Virus record (IMG/VR): IMGVR_UViG_3300009285_000007
Coordinates: 1 to 59,345 of that record
Source of the DNA: a virus
DNA length: 59,345 nucleotides
Reading direction: 5' to 3' (one strand)
Shown: piece by piece, positions 4,909-58,988 of the stretch
How positions within the stretch are numbered: position 1 is the stretch's first letter
Layout: the number at the start of each line of letters is the position of its first letter
Made by a program: the position numbers and the translations under genes
The notes under the pieces: generated by a model
Seen by the model: only the letters and a program-made list of their open reading frames with translations
What the model was told of the DNA's origin: nothing
Databases searched by the model: none

Positions 4909-5949
4909 TTACGCTGCGTCCGTGGGCTCGCCACCACTCCAGTCGGGAGGGCCGTAGTCGTAGGAGATGTTGGGATCAGAGGCGGTAGCCTGTGGCACCT
5001 TCGACGCTGTCTCGGTGTCGCTGATGGCCTTCGCCTCGGCGAGCTTCGTTTGTAGCTCACCTGCGTCGATCACGCTGTTGGACTTCGACGGGTGGAATTC
5101 GGCGGCCGTGTCAGTAGCCTCGTCGTCGGTCTCGTCGTCGGCGGCCGGGGCCCTGAGTAGCGCTCGGTACGACTCGCGCGTCACTGCGTCGAGCTCGGCC
5201 ATGACTTCGCGGCGCGTGCGTGCTTGGTCGAGCAACTCGCGTTGTAGTTTATGCATGTCCTGGGAGTGCAACTCGAGGTGACAGACGTACACGGTTGACT
5301 GCTGCGGTCCCTTCGGGGTGTCGGGGGTAACCTGGACGGCGCGCACCACGAGTTGCAGCGGTACGTTGCGCAGCACGCCCACGGCCTGCCTAATCTGGAG
5401 CATGCTGCCGATGAGTTGCTTGATACTGATGATCGAGGTCGTGCGCCAGCGATGTACCGACCCGGCGACCGCATGGTCAGGCAGGGCGATTGAGCAATGC
5501 AGCGTGCCGTGTGCCTTACACGACGGCTTGTCACCTTCAAGCAGATTGCATGGACACTTACATTCCTTCTCGCGCCCGGTGCGCTTGCTGTCCCTCATCT
5601 CCCATCGGTGCGCTGTCTCGCCATCGCCACGGCACGCAAGCTTCTTTCCCTGGTACATGGCGTATGAGGTCGGGAACACCTCGTCAATCTCGTCCGAGTG
5701 CAGCATGACCGGCAGCCTTCGAAGCTTACCATCCTCATCCGCGAAGCCTGAAGCGGACAGCGCAGCCATGAGATCGGCGTCCTGAATCAGATCGCCGCGC
5801 GCATCGCGATGCGTCTTGGTGAGGATGAAGTGGTCGAGCTTCACCGGCATGCGCCATGAGCCGTTCTTGCCCTGTCTCTCCTCGCCAAGCCCGCCAATCT
5901 TGATCTTACCACCCTCAGCGAGCGAAGGTGTGAGTCCCTTGATAGTCAT
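4909..5949 (-). CDS. Hypothetical Cys-cluster protein; possible ssDNA-annealing or ssDNA-binding partner of the adjacent exonuclease (position only)
   Basis: GGAGG RBS. CRGDG...CKCPCN...CKAHGTLHC cluster and an acidic C-terminal tail. I do not recognise the family. Confidence 0.75.
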   Translation of the reverse strand: MTIKGLTPSLAEGGKIKIGGLGEERQGKNGSWRMPVKLDHFILTKTHRDARGDLIQDADLMAALSASGFADEDGKLRRLPVMLHSDEIDEVFPTSYAMYQGKKLACRGDGETAHRWEMRDSKRTGREKECKCPCNLLEGDKPSCKAHGTLHCSIALPDHAVAGSVHRWRTTSIISIKQLIGSMLQIRQAVGVLRNVPLQLVVRAVQVTPDTPKGPQQSTVYVCHLELHSQDMHKLQRELLDQARTRREVMAELDAVTRESYRALLRAPAADDETDDEATDTAAEFHPSKSNSVIDAGELQTKLAEAKAISDTETASKVPQATASDPNISYDYGPPDWSGGEPTDAA

Positions 5950-5962
5950 TGGTTCCTCCGTG

Positions 5963-6781
5963 TTAGTCGATGTCGTCGAATGGTATGTCGCTGTCGTTCG
6001 CCGGCACGTCGGACGCGGCCCACTTTGGTAGGCGCAACGTCTGCTCTTCCGTGTATCGCCCAGGCCATACGCCGGTCTTCATTGCGATGCGGATCAGGTT
6101 GAGGGCGCCCTTGTATTCAGCACGCCCGGCCTCGACTAGATCGTCGTCGAGTCGGTAGACCGCCACGTCGTGCGGCGGGTTGCTCTCGACTGCCAGGATC
6201 ACGAATGGCAGGCGCTCGCCCGTCACCGCTTCGTACCCATCAACATAGAAAGCGCCTTGCAGGTGATAGCCGAGGCCGTATGAGTTTGAGGCGAACCGAT
6301 GCACGGCCACGTCCCGGGCCGTCTTGAGATCGCAGAGAACGAAGGTCGCCCAGTCGAGGCGGCCCTTGCATTCGAAGCCGAAGTCCTCGTCCTTCCACGT
6401 CAGCGACATCTCGGCCTTGCCCTCACGAAGGTACGGCTTGACTAGCGGGTGACTGCGCACAGCGTCGCGGATGGCAAGGCAGTGATCGTATTCGTTGACC
6501 TTGAGGATCGTTCGCCCGGCGTTTGCGGCTTCAAAAGCATCCCAATCCTTGCCCGCCCGTCGCGCGCCCTTGTAGACGGCATACTCCAGCGGGAACTTAT
6601 CCGGCTCGAACACGCACGTGTGAACGGCGCGCCCGAGCATCATCGCTGGAGTGTCTGGTCGGTCGTTCTCCAGCGCCCACTTGTAGTGCAGCAAACTCGT
6701 CCGCACCTGCTTTAGCAGCGTCGCGTTGATGCCTTTGCGCGCGACATACTCCGCGAACGTCTCGTTGGGTATCGCAACCAT
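5963..6781 (-). CDS. PD-(D/E)XK (Cas4/RecB/YqaJ-like) exonuclease
   Basis: GRLDW...LCDLKT (D...D-x-K) and QGAFY (QxxxY) motifs. GAGGAGGGG RBS. Confidence 0.8.
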   Translation of the reverse strand: MVAIPNETFAEYVARKGINATLLKQVRTSLLHYKWALENDRPDTPAMMLGRAVHTCVFEPDKFPLEYAVYKGARRAGKDWDAFEAANAGRTILKVNEYDHCLAIRDAVRSHPLVKPYLREGKAEMSLTWKDEDFGFECKGRLDWATFVLCDLKTARDVAVHRFASNSYGLGYHLQGAFYVDGYEAVTGERLPFVILAVESNPPHDVAVYRLDDDLVEAGRAEYKGALNLIRIAMKTGVWPGRYTEEQTLRLPKWAASDVPANDSDIPFDDID

Positions 6782-12966: not shown

Positions 12967-13184
12967 TGCCCCGCTACCGCACCAACGCCGAGCTCGTAGA
13001 CATGCTCGCCGAGGAGATGGCGATCTCCGACAAGCTCCGTCGCGACAACCTCGAGCTACACACGCAGACGCAAGGGTTGCGCGTGGTGCTCGCCCGCCTC
13101 CGCTCGCAACTATGTATGGCCCAGTCGGCGCTGGGCCGGGTGAGGCGGGCGACTGCGCCGGTGCAGGGGAGGTTGGCGAGGTGA
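12966..13184 (+). CDS. Hypothetical coiled-coil protein (72 aa)
   Basis: ATG at 12966 overlaps the upstream TGA. Confidence 0.65.
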   Translation: MPRYRTNAELVDMLAEEMAISDKLRRDNLELHTQTQGLRVVLARLRSQLCMAQSALGRVRRATAPVQGRLAR

Positions 13185-13714
13185 CTACGGTCGCGGCATT
13201 CACACTCACCCAACCCGGGTATCGCGACATCGGCCTTGACTACTGGCTGCTGTCAGAGAGTGGGGCATTTGACCGCGCCGGCTGTCAACTCGCAGACGGC
13301 CATTACAGCAGGCGCAAGATCGGCGCGCGTCAGTTCGTTCCGCCAGGGCAGCGGTTTGTATTGGTGACCCCAGATCACAGCGCTGTCTGGGCATGGTGGA
13401 GGCCGCATCCTGATAGTGGGATTACGCAAATGAACGGGCTGGACGGCTGGACGTGTACGATCTTTCGCAACACGGGCGCCACGCTGTCGAGCGAGTTGGT
13501 TCTTGACGCCGAGATGTCTCTCGCTGCGCTCGGTCACGGCTGCGGGCCGGACGGGATGTTGACCTACGTATGGGACAAGAAGGTCAAGAGCAGGAACCCG
13601 GGATACTGCTTCAAGTGCGCCGGGTGGATCATTCATCCGACGAAGCCGCGCAGTGCAGACAACAAGAAGACGCTGCTCTCGAAGTCGTTTGAATTGGCCG
13701 GGGTGCCGGCATGA
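13181..13714 (+). CDS. Hypothetical protein
   Basis: GTGA overlap start. VTTVAAFTLTQPGYRDIGLDYW... The track ORF's N-terminal extension is a shadow. Confidence 0.7.
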   Translation: MTTVAAFTLTQPGYRDIGLDYWLLSESGAFDRAGCQLADGHYSRRKIGARQFVPPGQRFVLVTPDHSAVWAWWRPHPDSGITQMNGLDGWTCTIFRNTGATLSSELVLDAEMSLAALGHGCGPDGMLTYVWDKKVKSRNPGYCFKCAGWIIHPTKPRSADNKKTLLSKSFELAGVPA

Positions 13715-14049
13715 CTTGGACCGCCTACGCCGAAGCCCCGGGCTACTGCCGGCGGCTGGTCACGCGCGGGACGGTCGAGGACGCGGTGCAGGCCGGGTGC
13801 GAGCGGATGCACCTGGTGTCACTCGACTGGCCGGCAGAGCACTCGCCGTGCCTCACCGTGCGCCGCACCGAGCTCGGGCCGCCGGACGTCCAGGCACGGC
13901 TCGAGAGTCCGCGCGCAAGCCTGCGGTTCGAGCATGTGCTGCACGGCGCAAGAGAGAAATACATCAAGTACGCCGGCAAGTCGCGGCGGGAGTACGTCAA
14001 CTCGCGGGTAGAGGTCGAAATCGCACGGGCGAGGAGAGCGAAGGCATGA
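13711..14049 (+). CDS. Hypothetical protein
   Basis: ATGA overlaps at both ends. Confidence 0.65.
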   Translation: MTWTAYAEAPGYCRRLVTRGTVEDAVQAGCERMHLVSLDWPAEHSPCLTVRRTELGPPDVQARLESPRASLRFEHVLHGAREKYIKYAGKSRREYVNSRVEVEIARARRAKA

Positions 14050-15443
14050 CGTGGGCGAATGAGTCATACTGTAAGTGGCTTTCAAAGAAGATGGAGACGA
14101 GCACGCCAGTCGGGCTTTCTCCATCAGACATACACCTGGGCGAGTATCTGTTCGGCTTTCAAGCTGACCTCGTGAGGTGGGCGCTTGTCCGCGGTCGGGC
14201 CGCAATCTTTGCCGACACCGGGCTTGGCAAGAGTCTGATGCAGCTCGAGTGGGCTAGACACATCGCGGAGCACGGGCGAGTGCTAATACTCACACCGCTG
14301 GCAGTGGCGCAACAGACTGTACGCGAGGCGCAGAGGTTCGGCATTGACGCCACGTATTGCCGTGATGATGACGGGTCGCGGATCGTCGTGACGAACTACG
14401 ACATCCTCGACCGCTTCGATCCGTCGCGATTTGTCGGCATCGTGCTCGATGAGAGTAGTATACTAAAGAGCTTCAACGGTGCTACTCGTAACGCACTGAT
14501 CGGTCAATTCGGTGCGACACCATACCGCCTTGCGTGCACCGCAACGCCGGCACCGAACGACTTCACAGAGTTGGGGAACCATTCGGAGTTCCTGAGCATC
14601 AAATCGCGCACGGAGATGCTCGCAGAGTACTTCGTGCACGACGGCGAGACCACCCAAGAATGGCGACTCAAAGGCCACGCCGTGGATCAATTCTGGCGCT
14701 GGGCGTGCGGCTGGGGCGCCATCGTGCGCAAGCCGAGCGACCTCGGATACGATGACGGCAACTTCGCGCTCCCCCCGCTGCGCATGCATGAGCACGTGTT
14801 GAGGGTCGACCACACGGCCGCGTGGCAATCCGGGATGCTGTTCGCCACGGAGTCGATGACACTCTCGGACCAGCGCGCCACACGCCGGGCAACGATTGAT
14901 GACAGGGTATCGGCCGCATGTGAATTGGCTGCCGGCGATGAACCTGTCCTAATCTGGTGTGAGTTGAACGCCGAAGGTGACGCACTGGAAAAGTCGATAC
15001 CGGGTGCCGTGCAAGTCAAAGGCTCTGATTCGCCAGACGTGAAGGAGGATCGGCTGCTCGGCTTCGCGGATGGCAAGTATCGCGTTCTGGTCACGAAGCC
15101 AAGCATCGCGGGCCATGGTATGAATTGGCAACACTGCGCCAGACAGATATTCGTCGGCGCGTCACACTCCTACGAGCAAACCTACCAGGCTTTGCGCCGG
15201 AGCTGGCGATTCGGCCAGACGAGGCCGGTTGACGCGTTCATCATTCGCGCCGAGACGGACGGCGCAATCGTCGCGAACTACAAGCGCAAGGACCACGACG
15301 CTCAGTTGATGTCGGTAGAGGCGTCCAAACACGTGCTCGGCGCCGTGCGCGAGGCAATCGGCGCGACGCGGAGAGAGTGGAACGACTACAGCGCAGAAAC
15401 TTCAATGCGCATCCCGTCATGGTTGCGCGCGGAGGCGGCATGA
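14046..15443 (+). CDS. SNF2/DEAD-like superfamily-2 helicase
   Basis: ADTGLGKS (motif I), VLDESS (motif II), C-terminal helicase motifs (VTKPSIAGHGMNWQ, QALRRSWRFGQ). ATGA start. Confidence 0.9.
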   Translation: MTWANESYCKWLSKKMETSTPVGLSPSDIHLGEYLFGFQADLVRWALVRGRAAIFADTGLGKSLMQLEWARHIAEHGRVLILTPLAVAQQTVREAQRFGIDATYCRDDDGSRIVVTNYDILDRFDPSRFVGIVLDESSILKSFNGATRNALIGQFGATPYRLACTATPAPNDFTELGNHSEFLSIKSRTEMLAEYFVHDGETTQEWRLKGHAVDQFWRWACGWGAIVRKPSDLGYDDGNFALPPLRMHEHVLRVDHTAAWQSGMLFATESMTLSDQRATRRATIDDRVSAACELAAGDEPVLIWCELNAEGDALEKSIPGAVQVKGSDSPDVKEDRLLGFADGKYRVLVTKPSIAGHGMNWQHCARQIFVGASHSYEQTYQALRRSWRFGQTRPVDAFIIRAETDGAIVANYKRKDHDAQLMSVEASKHVLGAVREAIGATRREWNDYSAETSMRIPSWLRAEAA

Positions 15444-17380
15444 AGGTCATCAACCAAGCACACGGCGAGCGGTTCGCCATCTACAATGCGGACTGCGTCG
15501 AGGCACTGCGCGGGTTGCCGGATAGCTCCGTGCACTACTCCATCTTCTCCCCGCCGTTTGCGAGTCTGTACACCTATAGCGCTTCTCCGCGCGATATCGG
15601 CAACTCACGAGATTACGCGGAGTTCACAGAGCATATGGGCTTCATGACCGGTGAGTTGCTCCGTGTCACGAAGCCAGGCCGGTTGCTGTCATTTCACTGC
15701 ATGCTGCTGCCGACAAGCAAGACTCGCGACGGATACATCGGGCTGCGTGACTTCCGTGGCGACCTCATCAGAGCATTCAATCTTGGCGGGTGGGTGTTTC
15801 ATTCGGAAGTAGCGATCTGGAAGGATCCAGTCACGGCCATGCAACGGACGAAGGCGCTGGGCTTGCTCCACAAGCAGATCAAGAAAGACGCTGCGATGAG
15901 TCGCCAGGGGATCAACGACTATTTAGTGACGATGCGACGGCCTGGCGAGAATGACGAGCCAGTCGCACACAAGGATGATCCGCTCGGTAATGATGTCGAG
16001 GTGTGGCAGCGGTACGCATCGCCGGTGTGGGCCGTAGCAGGAGAGCCGGACGACGAGGGTATGTGTCGCATGACACAGGACATCAATCCCAACGAGACGT
16101 TGCAGTATCGCAGTGCTCGCGAGGACAAGGACGAGCGCCACATCTGCCTTGCCGAAGGGTCGCTTGTGCTCACGCGCGAGCGTGGCTACCAGCCCATCGA
16201 GATCGTTGAGCCGGGGGAACACGTCCTCACGCATCATGGCCGGTGGCGCCCGGTGTTGGCTCGGTGCTGTAACGGCACCAAGGGCACGATCCGTGTGCAG
16301 GCCCAAGGCGTTGCCAACCTGATCGCGACTCCAGACCACAAGCTCTACGCCAGGGTGGCAAGCGGGGCGCGCGCGAAGGAACTGGCACTGAAAGCCGACC
16401 CGACATGGATTCAAGCATCGAAGACCACTGGGTCATACCTCAACCTCAAGCTGCCTCCGGTGGAGGAGAGCGAGTTGTCGGCCGAGGAGTGGTGGATCGT
16501 CGGCCGCTGGCTCGGAGACGGCCACCGCGGAACTCGCCGCACCAGTGGCGCTCGCGGAGCAGGCTTTGGCGAATTCATCGTGTCGTGTTCGCATGAAGAG
16601 GCACCGGGGCTCATCGAGAGGCTGGGGTCACACGCCGGACAGGTCCACAAAATCACGGCGACGCAGATTACGCTCCGCGGGCTCCGCCACGTCGTGCGCG
16701 AGACTCTCGATAGGTGCGGCGAGGGCGCCGCAAACAAGCACCTGCCCGGCGAGGCGGCGGCACTTTGCCAAGAGAAGGCCGAGGCCCTGCTTTCGGGTTA
16801 CCTGTCGGCTGATGGCCATTACGTTTCGAGACACGACCGCCATTGCTCCTCGTCGATCTCACGCGCGCTACTGCTCGGCATGTCGCTCGTCGCGATGCGC
16901 GCACGTGATGTGGTTGCGAGCGTCTATGCGGGCCGTCCAGACAGGGGTGGTGTCATTTGCGGACGAAACGTTCACATGGCGCAGGACTGGATCTTCTCAT
17001 TCAGGGGCAGCAACGGTTATCGGAAGTCCGGGTGGATCGACGAACTGGGTTCGTGGCGGAAGGTGCGCAAGATTAATGATGCCGGAGAGCGGCGTGTCTG
17101 GGACCTGCAGGTAAAAGAAGACGAGTCATTCACTGCTGAGGGGTGCGTTGTTCACAACTGCCCGCTGCAACTCGAAGTCATCCGTCGCGCGGTCAGGCTG
17201 TGGACGAACCCCAACGACATCGTGCTCTCGCCATTCGCAGGTATCGGATCTGAGGGCGTAGTCTCCATCGAGGAGGGCCGACGGTTCGTCGGCGTCGAGC
17301 TCAAGCGGAGCTACTACGAGCAGGCCACGCGCAATCTCGCCGAAGCGGAGAACCCGCGGCAAGCAAGCCTGTTCGCGTAG
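15440..17380 (+). CDS. Beta-class N6A/N4C DNA methyltransferase interrupted by an intein (precursor 646 aa)
   Basis: IFSPPF (motif IV) at the N terminus and VLSPFAGIGSEG (motif I) at the C terminus. A 338-aa insertion between ...DERHI and CPLQLEV has intein hallmarks. Confidence 0.9.
   Translation: MKVINQAHGERFAIYNADCVEALRGLPDSSVHYSIFSPPFASLYTYSASPRDIGNSRDYAEFTEHMGFMTGELLRVTKPGRLLSFHCMLLPTSKTRDGYIGLRDFRGDLIRAFNLGGWVFHSEVAIWKDPVTAMQRTKALGLLHKQIKKDAAMSRQGINDYLVTMRRPGENDEPVAHKDDPLGNDVEVWQRYASPVWAVAGEPDDEGMCRMTQDINPNETLQYRSAREDKDERHICLAEGSLVLTRERGYQPIEIVEPGEHVLTHHGRWRPVLARCCNGTKGTIRVQAQGVANLIATPDHKLYARVASGARAKELALKADPTWIQASKTTGSYLNLKLPPVEESELSAEEWWIVGRWLGDGHRGTRRTSGARGAGFGEFIVSCSHEEAPGLIERLGSHAGQVHKITATQITLRGLRHVVRETLDRCGEGAANKHLPGEAAALCQEKAEALLSGYLSADGHYVSRHDRHCSSSISRALLLGMSLVAMRARDVVASVYAGRPDRGGVICGRNVHMAQDWIFSFRGSNGYRKSGWIDELGSWRKVRKINDAGERRVWDLQVKEDESFTAEGCVVHNCPLQLEVIRRAVRLWTNPNDIVLSPFAGIGSEGVVSIEEGRRFVGVELKRSYYEQATRNLAEAENPRQASLFA
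16145..17158 (+). mobile_element. Intein with LAGLIDADG homing-endonuclease domain (338 aa) inside the methyltransferase
   Basis: Starts CLAEGSLVLTRERGYQPIEIVEPGEHVLTHHG (blocks A/B). Two LAGLIDADG-like motifs (WWIVGRWLGDGH, LLSGYLSADGHY). Ends VWDLQVKEDESFTAEGCVVHN, followed by the +1 Cys (CPLQ). Confidence 0.85.
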
Positions 17381-17450
17381 CCGTAGTTCCACGCCGGCCC
17401 ACCAGCCGGCCTTGCCCAGACTGCCGCCTATGACGGGCGGGGGGGATGGA

Positions 17451-17843
17451 ATGAGACGAGTGATTATCGAGAGTCCGTACGCTGCCGATACGCCCGAGCA
17501 GGTAGAGCGCAACATCGACTACCTTCTCAGTTGTATGGCCGATTGCCTACTCCGCGGTGAAGCCCCGTTCGCGAGCCACGCACTCTACCCGCAGGTGCTC
17601 AATGACAAAGACCCGGCAGAGCGCGCAATCGGAATCGGGGCCGGGCTTGCGTGGGGCTCGCAAGCCGAGGCGACGGTGGTCTACGACGACTTCGGGATCA
17701 CGCCGGGCATGGAGACGGGTATCAAGCGCGCGCACGACGAGGGGCGGCCAGTGGAGTATCGGAAGCTGTACTCACGCGAGGAGCAGTGCAAACAAGGTGT
17801 CCTTTCCGCCCTCGCCAGGTTCGACGAGTGGCAGAGGCGCTAG
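17451..17843 (+). CDS. Hypothetical protein (possibly nucleoside-deoxyribosyltransferase-like fold; weak)
   Basis: G-rich RBS. MRRVIIESPYAADTPEQVERNIDY... Confidence 0.7.
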   Translation: MRRVIIESPYAADTPEQVERNIDYLLSCMADCLLRGEAPFASHALYPQVLNDKDPAERAIGIGAGLAWGSQAEATVVYDDFGITPGMETGIKRAHDEGRPVEYRKLYSREEQCKQGVLSALARFDEWQRR

Positions 17844-17881
17844 ATTGCATGAGTTGAGGGTTACTCACAACGGAGGATGGA

Positions 17882-18187
17882 ATGCGCTGGGTGATGCAAT
17901 TCGACAGCCTCGTATCGGTGATGACGGACGAAGACTTGGTCAAAGCTGCGCCGCACTTCAGCGAGGCGAGGCGTATGTGGAAAGAGTACGGGCGCGACGG
18001 CGGTACATGCGTGCGCGGTGCTGGCATCGGCGTGCTGTACTTGCCGCCACGCTGCCGGAACCCTCGCGAGCAGGTAGTAATCCCGTCACCGTGGCAGGGT
18101 GACGGTGGCGACAGCGTGCGCATTCCCCTTAACTATCTCGCACGTCACGGCATTCCGGCGTTTCACGTGGCAGGGAGTATGGACTGA
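17882..18187 (+). CDS. Hypothetical protein
   Basis: GGAGGATGGA RBS. Confidence 0.75.
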   Translation: MRWVMQFDSLVSVMTDEDLVKAAPHFSEARRMWKEYGRDGGTCVRGAGIGVLYLPPRCRNPREQVVIPSPWQGDGGDSVRIPLNYLARHGIPAFHVAGSMD

Positions 18188-18684
18188 TGAAAACCATCAT
18201 CGGCATCGACCCGGGGCTTACAGGCGCCATCGCCGTGCTCGGTCCGGACGGCGAGACAGTGATCGACATGCCCATCGCTGTCGGCGGGCTGCGCGGGCAC
18301 AAGAGCCAGGTCGACGCGCTCACGCTCGGCATGGAACTCGGCGCGCACCCGGACGCGACAGTGTTCGTTGAGGTGCAGGGCGCGCGGCCGGGTGAGGGTG
18401 TCAGCAGCTCGCACACCAACGGCACCAACTTCGGAATCATCCTCGGCGTGCTCGGGGCGTTGCGCATGCGCTGGGAGCCCGTTGCCGCGCAGAAGTGGCG
18501 GCCGGCGATGGTTGGCCATCGTGGCCAGGGCGAGAGCAAGCGCGACAAGGGGCCGTCGCTGGCCACGGCGAGGCGGCTGTTCCCGGCGCTCGCAAGCTAC
18601 CTCGAGCGGAAGAAGGATCACGGGCGGGCCGAGGCGCTCTTGATTGCCGAGTGGGGCCGGCGGCGACTTGGCGGCGGCGCATGA
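18187..18684 (+). CDS. RuvC-like Holliday-junction resolvase
   Basis: MKTIIGIDPGLTGAIAVL...VFVEVQGARPGEG...GRAEALLIA fits the RuvC-fold pattern. TGATG coupling. Confidence 0.8.
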   Translation: MKTIIGIDPGLTGAIAVLGPDGETVIDMPIAVGGLRGHKSQVDALTLGMELGAHPDATVFVEVQGARPGEGVSSSHTNGTNFGIILGVLGALRMRWEPVAAQKWRPAMVGHRGQGESKRDKGPSLATARRLFPALASYLERKKDHGRAEALLIAEWGRRRLGGGA

Positions 18685-18778
18685 CCTGCCCACGCTGCGG
18701 AACTGAGTTGCGAGCACGGCTGCTGATCCGCGGCGTGTGGCGGTGGGTGTGTCTGCGGTGTGCGGAGAGGAGCGAGTG

Positions 18779-18779
<1 letters not shown>
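18681..18779 (+). CDS. Tiny Zn-ribbon protein (32 aa)
   Basis: MTCPRCGTELRARLLIRGVWRWVCLRCAERSE. ATGA overlap upstream and TGATG downstream. Confidence 0.5.
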
Positions 18780-19807
<1,028 letters not shown>

Positions 19808-20163
19808 ACTGTTCGCCGGCTACCCGCAAGCGGTGATGAGCCCGGCGGCGATTACGGCTTACTGGAGGCGGTGCTCCGGCATCATGCCCGAGGCGGTCGC
19901 GGTCGCATTCAACAAGGCGCCCTCACAGAGCCCGACATGGTGTCCGAGCGCGCAACTCGTTCGGGAGATTGCCATCGTCGAGGAGAAAGCGCGGTCAGGG
20001 CCGAGACCGGACCTCACCAGGCCAGCGCTTCCGGAACCGGAGCCGGAACTCGAGCCCGGCAATCCGTTCTACGAAACGCTGCAGCGATACAAGCGCGGAG
20101 AGATTCCCGGGCGGCAACTCGAGGGCGAGATTGTGCGGGCTGCGGCGAAGATCGGGGCAAGTC

Positions 20164-26129: not shown

Positions 26130-26202
26130 TGACGATGACCGGCCGCCAACAGGGTGACGTGGCCACTACGCGGTGCGCACAGGCGTACCGTTGGAGGCGG
26201 CT

Positions 26203-27852
26203 ATGTCCCGACGCGGGATCCGCGGCAGGATCGAGAAGGCGGCCGGCGCGGTCGTAGACGCGGCCGGCGAGACAGCGGACCGACTGCTCAATCTGGTGCC
26301 AACGGGTATCAGCGGGTTGAAGCGCTCGGGTGGATACGTCTACGACGAATTCCATCCGCGACTCTACGGCAAGAAGGCGATCAAGACCTACCGCGAGATG
26401 GCGGACAACGACGCCGTGTGTGGATCGATCCTCTGGTCTCAAGAGGCATTCGTCCGCCAGGCACCGTGGAACCTGAATCCCGAGGACGAGGGCCAGCCCG
26501 AGGCGGTGTTCTACCGCGACCGCATTCACGAGATGTTCAACGACATGAGCCACACGCCACAGGAGATGATGAGCGACGTGATGAGCATGGTGTGGGCCGG
26601 CTACTCTTGGCACGAGATCGTCTACAAGATCCGACGCGGCAACAACCCGCTGCCGCAGCTTCGCAGCAAGCACGACGACGGCCTCGTGGGCGTGCGCAAG
26701 ATCGAGATCAGGGCGCAAGAGTCCATCGAGAGATGGGACTTTGCCGACGACGGTGGCGTGACCGGCGCGTGGCAACAGGCGTGGCCGGACTTCCGCATGC
26801 GGCATCTCGACATCAACAAGTCATTGCTGTTCCGCATCCGAGCGAACAAGTCAAACCCGGAGGGCCGGAGCCTTCTTCGCAACGCACATCGGTCGTGGTG
26901 GTTTCTAAAGCGCATCCAAGAGCTCGAGGCCATCGGCGTCGAGCGCGACATGGCTGGGCTGCTTGTCTTCGAGATGCCGCCCGAGTTTTTCAGCAGGCTC
27001 GCCACACCGAAGCAGCTCGCGGCCGTCTCGCACTGGCGCAAGATCCTGCAGCGCGCTCGCCGCGGGGAGTACGACGGGCTCCTGTTCCCCGCCGAGCAGG
27101 ACAAGAACGGCGTGACCGGGTGGAAGGCCAGACTCATGCAGTCCGGTGGTCGCCGGCCGATGGATGTGGACGGGATCATCAAGCGTCTTGAGTCACGCAT
27201 TGCGCTGTCCGTGCTCGGCGAGGCCGTGTTGCTCGGCATGCAAGGCAACGTGGGCTCGTGGTCGTTGGCATCTAGCAAGACGCACATGTTTGCGGTCGCA
27301 CTCAAAGCCGAGATGGACGCCATCGCCGACGTGTTCAATCGTTTTCTCATCCCGCGCATCATGGAACTCAACAACTGGCCGCTCGCGGCGGCACCACGCT
27401 ACGAGTTCGGCGACATCGAGAACGACGACGCGCTCGAGCTCATCAATGCGCTGTCCTCGGCCGCGTCCGCGGGAATCATCGTGCCGGACCGCTCCATCGA
27501 GACTTACCTCCGCAAGCGCATGGGGCTGCCGGCGCGCGAGGATATCGACATGTCGAGCGGGCAGGCCCAAGACGCTGTCGGGGCATTTGCAGAGCATGAG
27601 AAGGATCTCAGCGACGGCGAGCAGGATCTCGAAGCCGAGGACGCACTGAGCAACGTGATCCCGATTCAGCCGGCGACGGCGCCATCGGAGACCCTGAGCG
27701 CCAACGACGCGGCACAACTGCTTGGCGTGAGTCGGGCGGTCATCAACCGCGCGATCTCATCCGGACAGTTGCCTGGCAACAAGGTCGGCGGCGGCTATCG
27801 CGTCTTCCGCTCCGATTTGATGGCGTACATGCGCAGCCAGAGGGCAGCATGA
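26203..27852 (+). CDS. Portal protein with C-terminal excisionase-type HTH
   Basis: GGAGG RBS. KTYREMADNDAVCGSILWS... is portal-like (Mu gp29/DUF935-type from memory). The last ~50 aa, LSANDAAQLLGVSRAVINRAISSGQLPGNKVGGGYRVFRSDLMAYM, form an HTH_17-like motif. Confidence 0.8.
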   Translation: MSRRGIRGRIEKAAGAVVDAAGETADRLLNLVPTGISGLKRSGGYVYDEFHPRLYGKKAIKTYREMADNDAVCGSILWSQEAFVRQAPWNLNPEDEGQPEAVFYRDRIHEMFNDMSHTPQEMMSDVMSMVWAGYSWHEIVYKIRRGNNPLPQLRSKHDDGLVGVRKIEIRAQESIERWDFADDGGVTGAWQQAWPDFRMRHLDINKSLLFRIRANKSNPEGRSLLRNAHRSWWFLKRIQELEAIGVERDMAGLLVFEMPPEFFSRLATPKQLAAVSHWRKILQRARRGEYDGLLFPAEQDKNGVTGWKARLMQSGGRRPMDVDGIIKRLESRIALSVLGEAVLLGMQGNVGSWSLASSKTHMFAVALKAEMDAIADVFNRFLIPRIMELNNWPLAAAPRYEFGDIENDDALELINALSSAASAGIIVPDRSIETYLRKRMGLPAREDIDMSSGQAQDAVGAFAEHEKDLSDGEQDLEAEDALSNVIPIQPATAPSETLSANDAAQLLGVSRAVINRAISSGQLPGNKVGGGYRVFRSDLMAYMRSQRAA

Positions 27853-41309: not shown

Positions 41310-42350
41310 ATGCTGCGAGTTGCTTGCATCACTCTGCTCTGCGCCGTCTCGTGTGGCGATTCCTACTACGTCTCGGAGGGAGGGACCGAGACCTACTACG
41401 TCGAGACTGATGGCGAGCATGTCATTGCCGGCGGTGACATCGGAGGCGACCCGATGAGCAACTACCCGCCCGATGGATGGAGCCTGAGCGGCACCGGCTG
41501 CGTCTGGGGCACGGACGCGCAGGTCAACACGGTAATCGCCAACCGAATCGGCGACTCATGCGTCGAGTTCTTGCCGACGACTCCAGCGGGAGCGCCGGTG
41601 TGGACACTGACGACCCCGGTGCCAATCGACGAGAACAGGCCATACAAGGTCGATGCTATCGTGCAGGCGGATAGTATCGCCGCCGGAAACACCGTCACTC
41701 TGCGGATCAACTGGTACGATGCCGACAAGGCATACCTCAGCTACGATTCCGCGTACGCTGCAGTCCTACCCAGCGCGAACGTGTGGCACGAGCTGAGCGG
41801 CATCTTCAACCCGCCGGCCGGGGCGCGATACGCGAGCCCGAGATTCACGAAGGAGAAGAATGCGTTCTCGGCGTATCTGGATTGGCTGGTGATCGAGGAG
41901 GTGAGGCGCAGCTTCAGTGCTTACCTAAGCAGTGCTCAGACCGGCGTTTCAGGTGGTGACGTGATCGAGTTTGACTCCGAGAGATACGACTTCGGATCCA
42001 TGTTCGACAACGTCACGAATTACGATTGGCTTTGCCCAGCTACGGGTTCCTACTCGCTACAAGCGTCCGTTCGCAACGATGCCTTTACGCCGCTTGACGA
42101 CGGCGAATACCTCCAGGTGCGGCTGTACAAGAGCACAAATGCGTGGTCGTCGTCCACCCAACTTGCGGACGGCACCATGTGCTGGGTGTCAGCGAATTCG
42201 GCCGATGCTGCCTCGGCAGTGGCATACACCGGCTATTTCAACCGCGGGGATCGTGTGCGCGTCAACGTCTATCACTCACACGGAAGTGCTATCAGTCTAG
42301 CTGGCGCTGCAGCGACGAACTATTCCTTCTTTGCCGTCAGTGAGCTGTAA
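41310..42350 (+). CDS. Lipobox-bearing protein with CBM-like jelly-roll and C-terminal C1q/TNF-like domain (receptor-binding candidate)
   Basis: AGGAGG RBS. MLRVACITLLCAVSCGDS. The C terminus FSAYLSSAQTGVSGGDVIEFDSERYDFGSMFD...GSYSLQA...GDRVRVNVY...FFAVSEL is C1q-like. Confidence 0.75.
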   Translation: MLRVACITLLCAVSCGDSYYVSEGGTETYYVETDGEHVIAGGDIGGDPMSNYPPDGWSLSGTGCVWGTDAQVNTVIANRIGDSCVEFLPTTPAGAPVWTLTTPVPIDENRPYKVDAIVQADSIAAGNTVTLRINWYDADKAYLSYDSAYAAVLPSANVWHELSGIFNPPAGARYASPRFTKEKNAFSAYLDWLVIEEVRRSFSAYLSSAQTGVSGGDVIEFDSERYDFGSMFDNVTNYDWLCPATGSYSLQASVRNDAFTPLDDGEYLQVRLYKSTNAWSSSTQLADGTMCWVSANSADAASAVAYTGYFNRGDRVRVNVYHSHGSAISLAGAAATNYSFFAVSEL

Positions 42351-42370
42351 CCAGGCCGTAGGAGACCCCC

Positions 42371-42835
42371 ATGCTTTCCAAGCGCCTCACCATCGCAACC
42401 CTAGCCCTGGTCATGCTCGCTGGCTTCTCTAGCCAGCGCGCGCTCAGGCAGAAGCTTGCAACCCTCGTCAACAACCTGGGCCTCGACGCCACGCGCTCGT
42501 TCACGGTCGCACCGTGCAATGACTCCGGCGACTGCTACAGCACGCTTGTGCTGACGCTGAATCACAGCGTGCACAACAGCGCGACTGCCATTGCCATGTC
42601 TTGCACGGCGACGGTGGACGACGGGACCACCGACGCGACGCTGCAAGAGTGTGCGGTCGCCAACGGGGTGTGCACGTCGAGTGACGCCTCATGGTCGAAG
42701 GCTGTGAGCGGCACTGCCGTCTGGGCCTGGCGAGTGGACGTGCGCGGCTATCCGTCCGTCACGTGCACGATCACCGACACGGGTGGCGACGCGGCCGACA
42801 AGATTACCGTCAAGGGCGTCCTGGTGACGTGGTGA
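42371..42835 (+). CDS. Hypothetical secreted/anchored Cys-containing protein
   Basis: N-terminal MLSKRLTIATLALVMLAGFSS. Confidence 0.7.
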   Translation: MLSKRLTIATLALVMLAGFSSQRALRQKLATLVNNLGLDATRSFTVAPCNDSGDCYSTLVLTLNHSVHNSATAIAMSCTATVDDGTTDATLQECAVANGVCTSSDASWSKAVSGTAVWAWRVDVRGYPSVTCTITDTGGDAADKITVKGVLVTW

Positions 42836-42843
42836 GGTACGCA

Positions 42844-43629
42844 ATGAGGCATCTACTCTGGATCGCGCCCGTCGTGGCGCTCGCCGGTGTGGCGTTCGCA
42901 GGGACGGTGGGCGGCTCACACTTCGTCGACGCGACGCCGAGCAACTACATCAACGGCTCCGGTGCCTCCGCCGGCCCGCTCCACCTCGGCGATGATGAGC
43001 CGCTCTACACCGGCTCCAGCAACGACTGCTGGACCGAGTGGGAGACCGGCACAACTCCCGACCGCTGGGAGCTTGAGTGCACGGACGTGGACGGCGGCGG
43101 TACGGACGGCGTTGTGTGCTCAGTGGACCAGGGCACGGATGACCTGGTGTGCTCGGGTGACGTCGATGTGACCGGCGATCTGACGGCCGGCACGCTGCAA
43201 GGCCAGACCGTCTCCCTCTCCGGCACCCTCACCGTCGAGGCGGGCGGGTGCACGTGCAACCAGGACGTGACGAGCGATGCCTACGCGACCTTCGCCGGTG
43301 TGGCTCTCACCGTCCCGACGCTCATGGAGCCTGCCGGTACGACGCAGACAATCACCTGGACGGACGGCATTCTCCAGCGCCTCGACCTCGGGAGTGCGAC
43401 GGGCACCGTCACGATCACCTGGGCAGGCGCCGCGGCCGGCCGGCAACTCGCCTTGGAGATCACACAGGCGGCGACGGCCCGGGCGATCACCTGGCCGGCC
43501 ACCGTCGATTGGGACTACGGATCTGCGCCGACGCTGAGCACCGGCGAGGACGAGGTGGACATCGTGCACTGCTACATCTTCGTGACCGGCGTAGAGCGGT
43601 GCCGCATCGTCGGGCAGGCATCGGAATGA
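42844..43629 (+). CDS. Hypothetical protein with Sec-type signal peptide (AFA/G)
   Basis: MRHLLWIAPVVALAGVAFAGTVGG. The track ORF's N-terminal extension is a shadow. Confidence 0.7.
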   Translation: MRHLLWIAPVVALAGVAFAGTVGGSHFVDATPSNYINGSGASAGPLHLGDDEPLYTGSSNDCWTEWETGTTPDRWELECTDVDGGGTDGVVCSVDQGTDDLVCSGDVDVTGDLTAGTLQGQTVSLSGTLTVEAGGCTCNQDVTSDAYATFAGVALTVPTLMEPAGTTQTITWTDGILQRLDLGSATGTVTITWAGAAAGRQLALEITQAATARAITWPATVDWDYGSAPTLSTGEDEVDIVHCYIFVTGVERCRIVGQASE

Positions 43630-45311
43630 CCCGCCGCGCCTATCTCCTGCTTGGGCTGCTGGCCGCCCTCACCGGCTACGCCTTCGCTGGCCCCGGCGGC
43701 TCCGGCGTTCGCTTCTGGTTGCGTGACAGCTCGCATGCGGACGCGGCCTCGGGCGCCACCGCCACCAAGACCAACACCGGCCCCACCTACTGCTGGGTGG
43801 ATGGCGAACTGACCGAGTTCGCCGACGACGTGCTGCGCTCCGGCTGCGAGATCCCGCCCGGCCTGACCGGCGGGGGAGATCCGGCGAGGTGCGACTATCA
43901 CAGCCACCCGTCGATCACGAATTCGATCCTACAGAGTGAGAACCTGGCGGCGACGTGGAGTGTTGACGGTGGCGTGGGGGTGGTGACATGCGGGCACGCA
44001 TCCACAGCGTTCGCCGATGCCAGGACGGTGTGCAAGATCACCGATGACAACGCCACTGCGTGGGAGGATGCCTATCAAGCCGTGGCGCACGGCTTGAGCA
44101 ATGACGATCCCGTAGTATTGTGCGTCGTTGCGTATGCCGACGATGCGCAAACGCTCGATGTCCAGTTTCGTGAGGCGGCAGGGGCCTGCGGCGGCGGGGC
44201 GACAAACTATCAAGTTGATTCTGTCGCGTTGACCACCGCACCCACGATCCACTGCTGGGCGCACACGATACACGACGCGACTTGTACGAACATAGTACCG
44301 ATCCTGAACCCGCACGACGTGGCAGACGGCGTTGCTGGAGTCGGCCACGCCTACGTCACCGCCGTTCAAGTCCTGCTCGGCACCGCGACCATCCCCTCGA
44401 TCTACTGCCCCACCACCGCCGCCGCGAACACCTGCGGGGTAGACGCCTTGTCGTACGCCATCGCCAACAGCGCGATCACCACGACAGCCAACCTTGCGGT
44501 GGCGGTGGCGGATGCTACCCAGGAAGGTGGTGATACAAGCGCGTGGACGACGACAAACGCAACGCTCAGCAAGAGCGCTGCGAACCCGCATGATGGGACA
44601 CAGGCTCTCCGTATTACCTATGCCAGCAGTGCCAACGGGAGCGCGTACCAGACGACGACGTTAACGGTGGGCCGCAAGTACCGCGTTCAGGCGTGGGCCC
44701 GCGGTGATGGCACGGCCAATCCTCGCATTGGCACAGGGGCTACAGGGAACAAGTTTACCACCGGGACTAACAGTACGGAGTGGCAACTGCTCGATGGCAC
44801 CGCGGTCGCCGACCACGCTTACTTTGTGCTGGGATCGGCCGGCATGGCTGTAGGTACCTGGGTGGAGTATGACTCCCCCACGCTGACCCCGATCACCGAC
44901 ATCACCGAGGAGCTGCGGGGGACGGTGAGGGTGGAGATGGATGTCTCGGTGTTCGTAGCGGACATTCCGGCAACGGCGGTCTTGTGGCACCTGGACAATG
45001 GCATAGCAGCGCAGCGAGCATCGGGCTATTTCTCCGACGCCGAGAGGTTGTTGTGGGTCACTACTCCCGGTGGCACGGATATGACTAGTGCCCCGCAGGT
45101 TTTAGCTGCTGGTGCATCATATCGCTTTGAATGGCGCAGTAACTACGACTTGGATGCGCACGAGGAGCGCATCGGCGGCGCGTCTGTTGGCACAAGTGCG
45201 GTAGCGCGCAGCAGTCCTGTCGGCATCACCACGTTCAGGATCGGAATGAACACAACGGCCGGCCAGCCTCCTGGTGGTGCCTGTTTCTCCAACATTCGAG
45301 TGAGCCGATGA
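43626..45311 (+). CDS. Signal-peptide protein with CBM_4_9-like / lectin-like domains (561 aa)
   Basis: MTRRAYLLLGLLAALTGYAFAGPGG. GDTSAWTTTNATLSKSAANPHDGTQALRITY...GRKYRVQAWARGDG is a CBM-like pattern. ATGA start. Confidence 0.75.
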   Translation: MTRRAYLLLGLLAALTGYAFAGPGGSGVRFWLRDSSHADAASGATATKTNTGPTYCWVDGELTEFADDVLRSGCEIPPGLTGGGDPARCDYHSHPSITNSILQSENLAATWSVDGGVGVVTCGHASTAFADARTVCKITDDNATAWEDAYQAVAHGLSNDDPVVLCVVAYADDAQTLDVQFREAAGACGGGATNYQVDSVALTTAPTIHCWAHTIHDATCTNIVPILNPHDVADGVAGVGHAYVTAVQVLLGTATIPSIYCPTTAAANTCGVDALSYAIANSAITTTANLAVAVADATQEGGDTSAWTTTNATLSKSAANPHDGTQALRITYASSANGSAYQTTTLTVGRKYRVQAWARGDGTANPRIGTGATGNKFTTGTNSTEWQLLDGTAVADHAYFVLGSAGMAVGTWVEYDSPTLTPITDITEELRGTVRVEMDVSVFVADIPATAVLWHLDNGIAAQRASGYFSDAERLLWVTTPGGTDMTSAPQVLAAGASYRFEWRSNYDLDAHEERIGGASVGTSAVARSSPVGITTFRIGMNTTAGQPPGGACFSNIRVSR

Positions 45312-47487: not shown

Positions 47488-47498
47488 CCGCGGCGATC

Positions 47499-47714: not shown

Positions 47715-47727
47715 CCGTGGTAGCGTC

Positions 47728-48198: not shown

Positions 48199-48272
48199 AG
48201 CATCCTCCTCCGTGAGCTCCAGCGCTCGTGCGCGCTCCGGCCGTAGCTGGGGCGCGAGGCGAGGGTGGGGGC

Positions 48273-57155: not shown

Positions 57156-57499
57156 GGGGCGGCGGCCTTTGGTGCGTGGTCCACGATCTCGGCCACGGCA
57201 CGGAGCGTCTCGAGCGAGGCCTTGTCCATGCCCTCGCGTGTCCACGCGCGCACGCGGGCCAGGCATCTCTTGCGCTCTAGCTCGTGCTCGTGCTCCAGCG
57301 TAGCGACCTCGATCCAAGATCGACTCCAGCCAGATTGACGCGGGTATGTGCTGCCGTAGTGCGTCCACTTCGATCCGTCGCTCAGCTCGATGAAGCGCTT
57401 TGTGACGCGCTCAATCTTGCGTATCGCGCTCAGGCCGCTGTCCCAGCCGCCACTGTAGACGGCGACGGACATGCCTGGCGTCAGTTCGGTCGTGATCAT
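57152..57499 (-). CDS. Hypothetical protein (115 aa)
   Basis: AAGGAAG RBS. The ATG gives an ATGA overlap with the integrase stop. Confidence 0.7.
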   Translation of the reverse strand: MITTELTPGMSVAVYSGGWDSGLSAIRKIERVTKRFIELSDGSKWTHYGSTYPRQSGWSRSWIEVATLEHEHELERKRCLARVRAWTREGMDKASLETLRAVAEIVDHAPKAAAP

Positions 57500-58809
57500 T
57501 TGGCTTCCTTTTGGGTGGAAGAGGCGGCGAAATCCACGTCGAGCAAGATACTCGGCGGCGAGTAGCGGCTCCGTCGCCGGAACGGAATCACCTGTGCCGA
57601 GTGCATGTGCCGACCACATGGTGCGTCGGCCTGCACTTCGGCGTGATCGGCAGCGCACGCTTGACATGCGGGACAGCTACTTGCATCACCCTGGATGTGG
57701 TCCGCTCGCCTTACAAGCCGGGGGTCCTCGGTTCGATCCCGAGTCCGCCCACGCACTTGCGGCACCTGTGCCGAGTCACCTGTGCCGAGTAGGAGCCGCT
57801 CCGCTGCGGCGGCAGTCGCGGCGGCGCGCGCTTCGGTGCTGTGCTGGTAGAGACTTGTCGTCCGTAGATCTCGATGCCCGAGGCTCTCGAGCGCCGCCCA
57901 TGGGTCGCCGCTGCCGGCGACTGCGAGCGTCGCGAACGTGTGCCGCAGGTCTCGCAGCTTGATCCTCTTGCCGTAGCCGATCCTCTCGGCCGCCTCGCGG
58001 TATGCTCGCCTGTGCGTGCCCTGCGCCAGAACATGCTCGGCCTCGGGGTCGGCCTCGACGCGGCGACGGATGATCTCAGCCGCAGCGTCGGTGAGCCCGA
58101 TCACGCGCTCGCGCCGCGTTTTGGCGTCACCCGCCGGCACCCGGAGCACGTAGCGCGTGGCGCTCCCGGCCGGGGCGGGCTCGACCCATGAGGCGCGCAC
58201 GCGCTTGAGCTCGGCGGCGCGGAGCCCGGTACGGAGGCAGAGCTCGACCTCGTCGCGGGCGTCCTGGTGGAGCTCGGCGAGCCATACGGCGAGTACCTCT
58301 GGTGGATGCAGTTGGCCGCGGGCCGACTCGAGCGGGGCGTCGCTGCGGATCTTCGGTCGCGCCGGCACACGACCGATGTGGCCGCGCTGGCGAGCCAACC
58401 CGAGCGCGCGGACTAGCGCCTGCGCCTCGCGGCGGATCGTCTGACCACGCACGCCAGCCTCGCGGCGCGCGGCCACGTAGCGCGTGATCGCCACCTCGTC
58501 GATCTGCTGGACGGGCTTGTCGCCGAAGTGATCGGCAAGCGGCGCCCAGACCCACTCGAGCGTCTGTGCTCGCGACTCGGCTACGCCTTCGGCCACGGCA
58601 CGCTCGACATCCCACTCTGCAAGCCTTGCCACGTCTATGGCTCCCCGCCGGCAGCGCGGTGCGGCCGCTTCTGCGTCAGCCCGTTTGCGGCGCTCCTCTG
58701 TCGTAGCCTGTCGCCGATCTGTCGTGCGAGCGGAACCGCGGTGCTCCTTGCCTGCGACGGTAAAGCGGTACCACCAGCGGCGTGATCCGGGGCGTCGATA
58801 CAACGACAT
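57496..58809 (-). CDS. int: Tyrosine integrase
   Basis: MSLYRRPGSRRWWYRFTVAGKEHRGS arm-binding N terminus. RDLRHTFAT...LGHRDLRTTSLYQH catalytic region. The ORF continues about 115 aa past the catalytic Tyr, through the attP core. AGGAGG RBS. Confidence 0.9.
   Translation of the reverse strand: MSLYRRPGSRRWWYRFTVAGKEHRGSARTTDRRQATTEERRKRADAEAAAPRCRRGAIDVARLAEWDVERAVAEGVAESRAQTLEWVWAPLADHFGDKPVQQIDEVAITRYVAARREAGVRGQTIRREAQALVRALGLARQRGHIGRVPARPKIRSDAPLESARGQLHPPEVLAVWLAELHQDARDEVELCLRTGLRAAELKRVRASWVEPAPAGSATRYVLRVPAGDAKTRRERVIGLTDAAAEIIRRRVEADPEAEHVLAQGTHRRAYREAAERIGYGKRIKLRDLRHTFATLAVAGSGDPWAALESLGHRDLRTTSLYQHSTEARAAATAAAAERLLLGTGDSAQVPQVRGRTRDRTEDPRLVRRADHIQGDASSCPACQACAADHAEVQADAPCGRHMHSAQVIPFRRRSRYSPPSILLDVDFAASSTQKEAK
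57589..57602 (+). repeat. 14-bp motif CACCTGTGCCGAGT, copy 1 (candidate integrase arm-type site)
   Basis: Identical to two tandem copies at 57763..57790 on the other side of the attP core. Confidence 0.5.
57705..57751 (+). other. attP core: 3' portion of a tRNA-Val(UAC) gene (anticodon loop to discriminator), not a complete tRNA
   Basis: CTTACAA anticodon loop, GGGTC variable loop, CTCGG-TTCGATC-CCGAG T-arm, TCCGCCC acceptor strand plus A. Closely parallels the E. coli tRNA-Val(UAC) 3' half from memory. No matching 5' acceptor strand or D-arm upstream. Confidence 0.7.
57763..57790 (+). repeat. 14-bp motif CACCTGTGCCGAGT, tandem copies 2 and 3
   Basis: Read directly. Starts 12 nt after the tRNA fragment end. 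Confidence 0.5.
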
Positions 58810-58988
58810 GCGGTGTCCTCCTGAGTGTCGATCCAGGCGTCGACATCGGCCGTTCGATAGCGTACCCGGCCGGCGATCCGCAACCTCCGCGGTCCATCGT
58901 CGGCTCGGTGCGCGAGCCAGGAGACCGAGCACCCGATCCGCTCGGCGGCCTGTGCGACAGTGAGCAAGTCATCGCGCACGGCTTGCAC
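58635..58988 (-). CDS. Excisionase/AlpA-type HTH protein (Xis-like)
   Basis: LLTVAQAAERIGCSVSWLAHRADDGPRRLRIAGRVRYRTADVDAWI is an HTH_17-like motif. GTG start. The C-terminal ~58 codons overlap int out of frame. Confidence 0.6.
   Translation of the reverse strand: MQAVRDDLLTVAQAAERIGCSVSWLAHRADDGPRRLRIAGRVRYRTADVDAWIDTQEDTACRCIDAPDHAAGGTALPSQARSTAVPLARQIGDRLRQRSAANGLTQKRPHRAAGGEP

Follow-up and report, generated by a model that had tools for sequence, protein, structure and literature searches.

Inteins in phage DNA methyltransferases are already on record. Kelley et al. (2016, PMC5050341) counted 11 inteins in mycobacteriophage methylases of two N6_N4_Mtase families, and their supplementary table places the 'DNMT-1' inteins at 43894-44886 in Pacc40 gp60, 41974-42966 in Brocalys gp61 and 47357-48349 in Job42 gp69. 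Gosselin et al. (2023, PMC9957025) devoted a paper to the DNMT-2 methylase intein (Dorothy gp75), for which they argued homing between divergent methylases, and also described in-frame insertions in phage methylases that are not inteins (an extra LAGLIDADG domain and the ShiLan insert). A 2025 survey (bioRxiv 10.1101/2025.01.02.630785) counts N6/N4 and C5 methylases among previously reported intein hosts. Here we describe a 338-residue insert in a DNA methyltransferase encoded by the virus record IMGVR_UViG_3300009285_000007, of which positions 1 to 59,345 (59,345 nucleotides) are referred to as the window. An earlier note, made from the letters alone, had called this insert an intein and a methyltransferase an unusual host for one; the second opinion is not borne out by the three reports above. 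The insert, seated in a stand-alone methyltransferase of a temperate phage, is very probably a true class-1 intein that includes a two-motif LAGLIDADG endonuclease, and it is homologous to DNMT-1 at the same site. The observations that speak for this are its anatomy, the conservation of its catalytic residues, its predicted fold, the fact that close homologues lack it precisely, and the decoupled divergence of intein and extein.

An in-frame insert in a beta-class methyltransferase

On the plus strand an open frame is continuous from 15377 to 17380, and by open reading frame (ORF) listing and translation it encodes, from the ATG at 15440, a 646-residue methyltransferase precursor. Within the sequence ATGA, this start codon shares bases with the stop codon of the helicase gene upstream. 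The insert lies in frame between ...DERHI and CPLQLEVIRR, and the coordinates and sequences first given for it proved exact to the base. The gene is divided as follows.

15440..16144, plus strand: N-extein, residues 1-235 of the precursor, ending ...KDERHI; aligns end to end with intein-free homologues
16145..17158, plus strand: intein, residues 236-573 (338 residues), class 1, with a nested LAGLIDADG homing endonuclease; starts CLAEGSLV and ends ...EGCVVHN
17159..17380, plus strand: C-extein, residues 574-646 plus the stop codon; starts with Cys+1 (TGC, 17159-17161) as CPLQLEVIRR
15548..15559, plus strand: methyltransferase catalytic motif IV, SPPF, residues 37-40; aligns with SPPY of Protein Data Bank (PDB) entry 2zie by way of the homologue P0031
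17228..17257, plus strand: methyltransferase AdoMet-binding motif I, SPFAGIGSEG, residues 597-606; aligns with DPFAGTGTT of 2zie and CFMGSGTT of M.MboIIA

The Pfam family N6_N4_Mtase (PF01555) matches the precursor with 58.4 bits (E = 1.3e-15), above its cut-off of 26.7, and an intein-free homologue, P0031, matches M.MboIIA, CcrM, M.RsrI, PvuII and 2zie. Motif IV stands N-terminal to motif I, which is the beta-class order, as had been claimed for this enzyme. Judged by sequence, the ORF is thus a beta-class N6/N4 DNA methyltransferase. An SPPF form of motif IV is more typically carried by N4-cytosine enzymes.

Closely related enzymes lack the insert precisely. When the spliced 308-residue extein was used as the query, the best 120 of 8000 matches were all 290-359 residues long and without the insert; at 100% coverage their identity reached 76%. 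A tblastn search of 50,697 phage records with the whole protein found 24 mycobacteriophage records whose alignment runs on through the insert (unbroken, or in two segments in Minnie) and many others that align to its flanks only. The best intein-free phage homologue is that of the Manatee Spring podovirus (MW202713), whose extein is 66% identical and whose junction reads DDERHICPLQLEVIRR without interruption; the intein-free junction of P0031 reads DERHICPLQLEVIRR. The junction ...ERHI-CPLQ..., which had been predicted for intein-less relatives, is therefore found unbroken in two of them. Because intein-free members carry the same cysteine, Cys+1 is a native residue of this ERHI^CPLQ methylase subfamily (here and below, a caret marks a splice junction or insertion point).

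The insertion point falls inside the conserved element H-x-x-P and precedes the AdoMet-binding SPFAGIG loop by 23 residues. The insert had been described as splitting the enzyme just before motif I; it does lie upstream of that motif, at a distance of 23 residues and not immediately before it. The element compares as follows with two structurally known enzymes.

Window family: H-I-C-P-L-Q-L-E-V-I-R-R...SPF-x-G-I-G
M.MboIIA (1g60): H-I-T-P-K-P-R-D-L-I-E-R...CFMGSGTT
2zie: H-P-A-P-F-P-L-E-L-A-E-R...DPFAGTGTT

Since the site lies in this conserved element near the AdoMet loop, the unspliced precursor is probably inactive. That DNA modification would depend on splicing, as the earlier note had it, is plausible from where the insert sits, and it would be equally true of all known methylase inteins. 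A literature search on the HPTQKP motif, made for the role of the interrupted element, returned no paper.

The window comes from a metagenome assembly, and a chimera or sequencing artefact could in principle have joined an unrelated intein gene to a methylase. The chance of this is negligible, given that at each junction the insert keeps the frame and falls exactly between codons. Moreover, the identical 646-residue protein is on record from two contigs, one of them a groundwater-metagenome contig on which its gene was called (ENA ERZ909573; run SRR2177362, PRJNA292723), and the same architecture occurs independently in cultured mycobacteriophages, in IMG/VR contigs and in bacterial genomes. 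These independent occurrences effectively refute an assembly artefact.

Comparison with described inteins

The true precedent for the window intein is DNMT-1 of Kelley et al., found in cluster F Cheoctovirus mycobacteriophages (the 24 records above) such as Pacc40, Job42, Brocalys, Squirty and Minnie. The tblastn matches of the window intein in Pacc40, Brocalys and Job42 have the very coordinates published for DNMT-1. The two share their site, the H-x-x-P element before motif I, with DNMT-1 reading QMHV^CLARGS...VVKN^CPLQFD and the window ERHI^C...VVHN^CPLQLE in the same alignment columns. They are 45-47% identical over residues 1-338 (E about 1e-77) and have the LAGLIDADG architecture and the Cys1/Cys+1 pair in common, and in both the host module consists of an SNF2-like helicase plus an N6_N4 methyltransferase. 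They differ in four respects: the DNMT-1 extein is only 29-39% identical to that of the window; helicase and methylase are fused in the mycobacteriophages (1200-1340 residues), whereas they are two genes with an ATGA overlap in the window; the DNMT-1 intein ends in Lys-Asn and the window intein in the canonical His-Asn; and the window terminase resembles the terminases of phages with Gram-negative hosts.

Dorothy gp75, the DNMT-2 intein of Gosselin et al., was considered as a direct precedent and rejected, its junction being different and its homology not meaningful. Like the window intein, it is a LAGLIDADG class-1 intein in a phage N6_N4-type methylase, and its patchy spread, with evidence of transfer between divergent methylases, is a further likeness. 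Unlike the window intein, it occupies another methylase family at another site (AWLYG^CLTADT...ITGN^SGFPKS) with Ser+1, and any meaningful similarity between the two is limited to block B, the best BLASTP segment covering 27 residues at E = 0.013.

Inteins of C5 methyltransferases belong to the same clade as the window intein. They are 30-38% identical to it over the full length, share the endonuclease and the Cys1/Cys+1 pair, and likewise interrupt a DNA methyltransferase at an active-site motif. The extein is of family PF00145 and not PF01555, and at the junction, GFP^C...HN^CQPFS, the catalytic motif IV cysteine serves as Cys+1. A literature search for C5-methyltransferase inteins found nothing specific to them.

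Splicing residues

The residues expected of a class-1 intein with Cys+1, as which the insert had been classified, are all there: Cys1, the TPDH of block B, the terminal His-Asn and Cys+1. Their conservation was counted in an alignment of 154 full-length intein relatives cut from their host proteins.

16145..16147, plus strand: Cys1, the block A nucleophile (N-S acyl shift); Cys in 154 of 154 relatives
16328..16339, plus strand: splicing block B, T62-P-D-H65 (within ATPDHK); T62 in 152 of 154 (Ser in the other two), H65 in 154 of 154
17096..17158, plus strand: splicing blocks F and G, VWDLQVKEDESFTAEGCVVHN, ending His337-Asn338; supported by TIGR01443 and by alignment with the Mycobacterium tuberculosis (Mtu) RecA intein; Asn338 in 154 of 154

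Cys+1 is present in all 128 relatives with methyltransferase hosts. The ATPDHK of block B aligns with the ATPDHK of the Mtu RecA intein (2in0), and the C-terminal blocks of the two align as well. On this alignment the element LTHHG, singled out in the earlier note, is not block B; it is another conserved element (T29), and block B is T62-P-D-H65.

A domesticated domain that does not splice and is kept in the mature enzyme, comparable to the extra LAGLIDADG domain or the ShiLan insert, would have no use for C1, T62, H65, N338 and C+1, which serve splicing only and are kept in essentially all relatives. The insert also breaks a conserved motif next to the AdoMet-binding loop, the closest homologues do without it, and the predicted HINT fold (see below) appears complete. 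Non-intein insertions in frame are known in phage methylases (Gosselin et al. 2023), and several Pfam and TIGR intein models score under their cut-offs here, both of which speak for a retained domain. On balance we consider a retained domain very improbable.

The residue before the terminal asparagine varies by host site. At the N6/N4 site it is Lys in 28 of 37 inteins and His in seven, including that of the window; at the C5 site it is His in 90 of 91. The Lys-Asn ending is a systematic departure from the canonical His-Asn within one site-specific intein lineage.

Cys334, four residues before the C-terminal junction, is kept in 33 of the 37 inteins at the N6/N4 site. Together with the cysteines at positions 1 and +1, it leaves room for a conditional post-translational switch, in which, for instance, redox trapping by a Cys1/Cys+1 disulfide or the sensing of stress would time methylation by the phage; a site within a functional motif, where methyltransferase activity should depend on splicing, would suit such a device. 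The sporadic distribution of the intein and its signature of mobility are those of a selfish element, and most methylases of the family work without any insert, so that regulation of this kind seems improbable. If it were true, the switch would gate an orphan methyltransferase and so the timing of anti-restriction protection or of epigenetic marking in the temperate cycle.

Endonuclease domain and predicted fold

The two LAGLIDADG-like motifs that had been pointed out in the insert (GRWLGD125G and GYLSAD223G) are present, within a nested domain whose features are given below; A1 denotes an alignment of 28 sequences that was also used for the AlphaFold2 (AF2) model.

16457..17020, plus strand: homing endonuclease domain, boundaries approximate, about intein residues 105-292; AF2 helices 113-125 and 209-223 at the motifs
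16490..16525, plus strand: LAGLIDADG motif 1, WWIVGRWLGDGH, with predicted catalytic Asp125; G120, R121, D125 and G126 invariant in A1
16718..16747, plus strand: conserved endonuclease element GEGAANKHLP, which holds Lys198; G192, K198 and P201 invariant in A1
16787..16822, plus strand: LAGLIDADG motif 2, LLSGYLSADGHY, with predicted catalytic Asp223; G218, Y219, D223 and G224 invariant in A1

Among the 154 relatives, position 125 is Asp or Glu in 147, and Lys198 and Asp223 are each kept in 153. The AlphaFold2 model of the window intein has a pLDDT of 93.6 and a pTM of 0.91. The top PDB match of this model in Foldseek is TliVMA (7qsu; E = 1e-16, TMq 0.67), followed by PI-SceI, PI-PfuI and PI-TkoII, and all of the best matches are full-length inteins that contain an endonuclease; lower matches are mini-inteins, hedgehog HINT domains and the free-standing LAGLIDADG enzymes I-Tsp061I, I-WcaI and variants of I-OnuI. 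As in TliVMA (7qsu), PI-SceI (1vde/1lwt), PI-PfuI (1dq3) and PI-TkoII (2cw7), the modelled HINT domain is interrupted by a two-motif LAGLIDADG endonuclease. These structurally characterised inteins match the model with Foldseek E-values of 1e-16 to 1e-9 and TMq of 0.5-0.67; their sequence identity to it is 10-16%, and their hosts are others. According to the model, then, the insert has a complete HINT fold together with a two-motif LAGLIDADG endonuclease fold.

Proposed splicing and homing pathway

The splicing chemistry of class-1 inteins is established. Splicing, DNA cleavage and inactivity of the precursor are what we infer for the window protein from its sequence, along the following path. 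The 646-residue precursor would be translated, probably coupled to the upstream helicase gene. Cys1 would undergo an N-S acyl shift, and Cys+1 (residue 574) would attack the resulting thioester in a trans-thioesterification. Cyclisation of Asn338, aided by His337, would then free the intein, and an S-N shift would leave a 308-residue methyltransferase reading ...DERHI-CPLQLEVIRR.... Once free, the 338-residue intein is predicted to cleave across GAGCGCCACATC^TGCCCGCTGCAA in alleles without an intein, which a co-infecting phage or a prophage could supply; recombinational repair would thereupon insert a copy of the intein (homing).

Distribution and mobility

Used alone as a query, the intein has relatives at E = 7e-154, and among 1.84 billion representative proteins it gave 2720 matches at E <= 1e-3 and 162 at E <= 1e-30; with relatives at such an E-value and in these numbers, the insert is no chance reading of the frame. 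The N6/N4 site, (D/E)E(R/K)H[IVLM]^C...N^CP[LM]Q, is occupied in 36 metagenomic representatives of 50% clusters plus the window, out of the 154 full-length relatives, and the C5 site, GFP^C...HN^CQPFS, immediately N-terminal to the PCQ motif's catalytic cysteine, in 91. The remaining relatives are in other hosts, which include TraG/VirD4-type coupling proteins and gpA-type terminases. This spread over the N6/N4 H-x^C-P, the C5 P^C-Q and the ATPase Walker-B sites suggests that the clade made ectopic jumps between unrelated host genes; if jumps between methyltransferase active sites did occur repeatedly, the clade would be a model for ectopic intein transposition.

Some individual carriers are worth recording. 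P0002, a TraG/VirD4-type coupling protein of type IV secretion, has an intein 57% identical to that of the window, above the mycobacteriophage copies, with the junction DELHA^C...HN^CPVDLP. Another host site, IDEYDD^C, lies at the Walker-B region in ATPases of gpA-type terminases, and P0002, P0154, P0174, P0187 and P0235 are relatives outside methylases. The C5 site is used in proteins P0026 and P0178-P0295 and in phage records H78-H89; isolates with a C5 intein are Pseudomonas phage Lana, Lactobacillus phage Nyseid, Mannheimia phage 587AP2 and Escherichia coli jumbo phages.

Six IMG/VR viral contigs carry an intein 59-68% identical to that of the window, at the same site and in the same ERHI^CPLQ extein subfamily. 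Among the isolated phages searched, the N6/N4-site intein was seen in mycobacteriophages only. A survey of bacteria, run as a single-pattern scan with one genome per species, found carriers at this site in Micromonospora, Dactylosporangium, Rhizomonospora, Duganella, Bradyrhizobium, Methylocystis, Nevskia and [Pseudomonas] boreopolis and in an acidobacterial and a planctomycete metagenome-assembled genome (MAG); in Aureimonas only the N-terminal intein junction could be read. The bacterial carriers fall in the Actinomycetota, Proteobacteria, Acidobacteria and Planctomycetes.

To judge movement between hosts, identities to the window can be compared for intein and extein. P0152 is 57% identical in the intein and 34% in the N-extein, P0173 is 41% and 62%, and Pacc40 has 47% in the intein against 29-39% in the extein. 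The target-site DNA is conserved across hosts, and the putative intein-less site of 48 base pairs was reconstructed as GAGGACAAGGACGAGCGCCACATC^TGCCCGCTGCAACTCGAAGTCATC. Decoupled identities of this kind, together with conserved target DNA, are consistent with homing from one divergent methylase to another, the case that Gosselin et al. made for DNMT-2.

Observations that weigh against the assignment

A number of results tell against a mobile class-1 intein and are collected here. Most of the curated profiles fall short of their cut-offs on the window intein, each with a significant E-value: PF14890 Intein_splicing reaches 30.3 against 35.8, PF13403 Hint_2 19.7 against 28.4 and TIGR01445 intein_Nterm 12.9 against 24.5, and LAGLIDADG_3 also remains below. 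TIGR01443 intein_Cterm does pass (24.1 bits against 15.6), so that the profile check foreseen for the insert came out in favour at the C-terminal end and under the cut-offs for the other four models. Given that the curated Pfam and TIGR profiles are mostly below cut-off, membership among inteins is set by homologues, structure and residue conservation. In block F the histidine of the Mtu RecA intein is replaced by Glu327, as it is by Glu in most relatives, and position F:4 is Asp in the window intein and N, C, D or S across relatives. In the literature we found no experiment on splicing or cleavage by a methylase intein, and Kelley et al. (2016) mention DNMT in the context of a survey only.

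With regard to mobility, GC content at third codon positions (GC3) is 0.734 in the intein and 0.732 in the N-extein, which gives no compositional sign of recent arrival, and the nearest intein-free allele among the extein matches listed is only 76% identical; at this distance, ongoing homing in the lineage of the window is no more than putative. The same two results would be expected of an intein that still splices while its endonuclease is inactive or immobile, a vertically inherited relic able only to remove itself. Decay of the endonuclease does occur in the family: of the 37 inteins at the N6/N4 site, 3 have C or N in place of Asp125. The window copy has Asp125, Asp223 and Lys198 intact, all nearly invariant in the 154 relatives, and its endonuclease domain is modelled with high confidence. 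Across hosts, moreover, the divergence of intein and extein is decoupled, as continued horizontal movement predicts. A relic is therefore unlikely, and an intein with a putatively functional homing endonuclease is the better account of the window insert.

As such, the insert is an ordinary member of a published family and raises no new question on inteins or anti-restriction. It extends the range of the DNMT-1 allele to a temperate groundwater phage with a terminase like those of phages of Gram-negative hosts and to the stand-alone ERHI^CPLQ methylase subfamily, outside the actinophage set that underlies the existing literature; with its relatives, it shows the intein spread over phages and prophages of several bacterial phyla, beyond actinophages. 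An apparently intact, full-length intein with canonical Cys1...His-Asn/Cys+1 and a high-confidence model could also serve as a splicing or meganuclease reagent.

Naming and further insertions in the mycobacteriophage genes

In the RefSeq copies of the mycobacteriophage genomes, among them NC_011287 (Pacc40), NC_021538 (Job42) and NC_026588 (Squirty), the helicase-methylase is named 'anaerobic ribonucleoside reductase large subunit', and in the GenBank originals it is a DNA methylase or helicase. Given that the NrdD inteins of Lactococcus phages are distant relatives, the RefSeq name probably arose by annotation transfer through the intein, and annotators should be aware that intein-containing methylases get misnamed.

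Pacc40 gp60 (L001) has, at residues ~253-413 in its helicase half, an additional low-complexity stretch of ~160 residues rich in Ser, Thr, Ala and Gly that is lacking in Minnie gp69 (L003), and Minnie gp69 has a Cys-rich insert of ~30 residues in its methylase half. The helicase-methylase host gene thus gathers several independent insertions, comparable to what Gosselin et al. (2023) describe for DNMT-2.

The host phage and neighbouring genes

The window is a temperate siphovirus-like phage from groundwater. It has a Mu-like portal, a tail tube protein and an integrase on the minus strand (57496..58932), and its terminase shares ~50% identity with terminases of Nitratiruptor, Bdellovibrio and Pseudomonas phages. 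A megablast search of window positions 13000-20000 against the 50,697 phage records gave no match, so no isolated close relative is present there, and a Pfam scan of the terminase, the portal and large ORFs of the window found no other intein. The partner of the methyltransferase is the gene directly upstream.

14046..15443, plus strand: SNF2/DEAD-like helicase, a 465-residue gene call; PHROG DNA helicase phrog_62 (2.5e-62)

In the fused Pacc40 gp60 the counterpart of this helicase is the N-terminal helicase half, with 33-36% identity (E = 5e-42). No restriction endonuclease partner was seen beside the window methylase, which therefore looks like an orphan.

Other neighbours form a typical phage replication and recombination module, at 17412-17843 and 18187-18684 on the plus strand and at 50347-51240 and 4909-6781 on the minus strand. 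Its genes are a nucleoside 2-deoxyribosyltransferase-like gene (DUF7768-type), a RuvC-like Holliday junction resolvase, a PAPS-reductase-domain protein, and an RDF-like Gp3 beside a PDDEXK (DUF3799) nuclease. A perfect 11-fold AGCGAC repeat at 19247-19312 (plus strand), encoding (Ser-Asp)11, lies in the middle of an ORF at 18737-19807 that resembles a DnaD-like helicase loader (phrog_1701/25210); the tract may be a flexible acidic linker or prone to slippage. In the Mu-like portal ORF (26173-27852, plus strand; PF06074) an HTH_17 domain of excisionase/MerR type is found in frame at the C-terminus (27694-27843), which is unusual for a portal, and the GTG-started frame could represent one gene or two.

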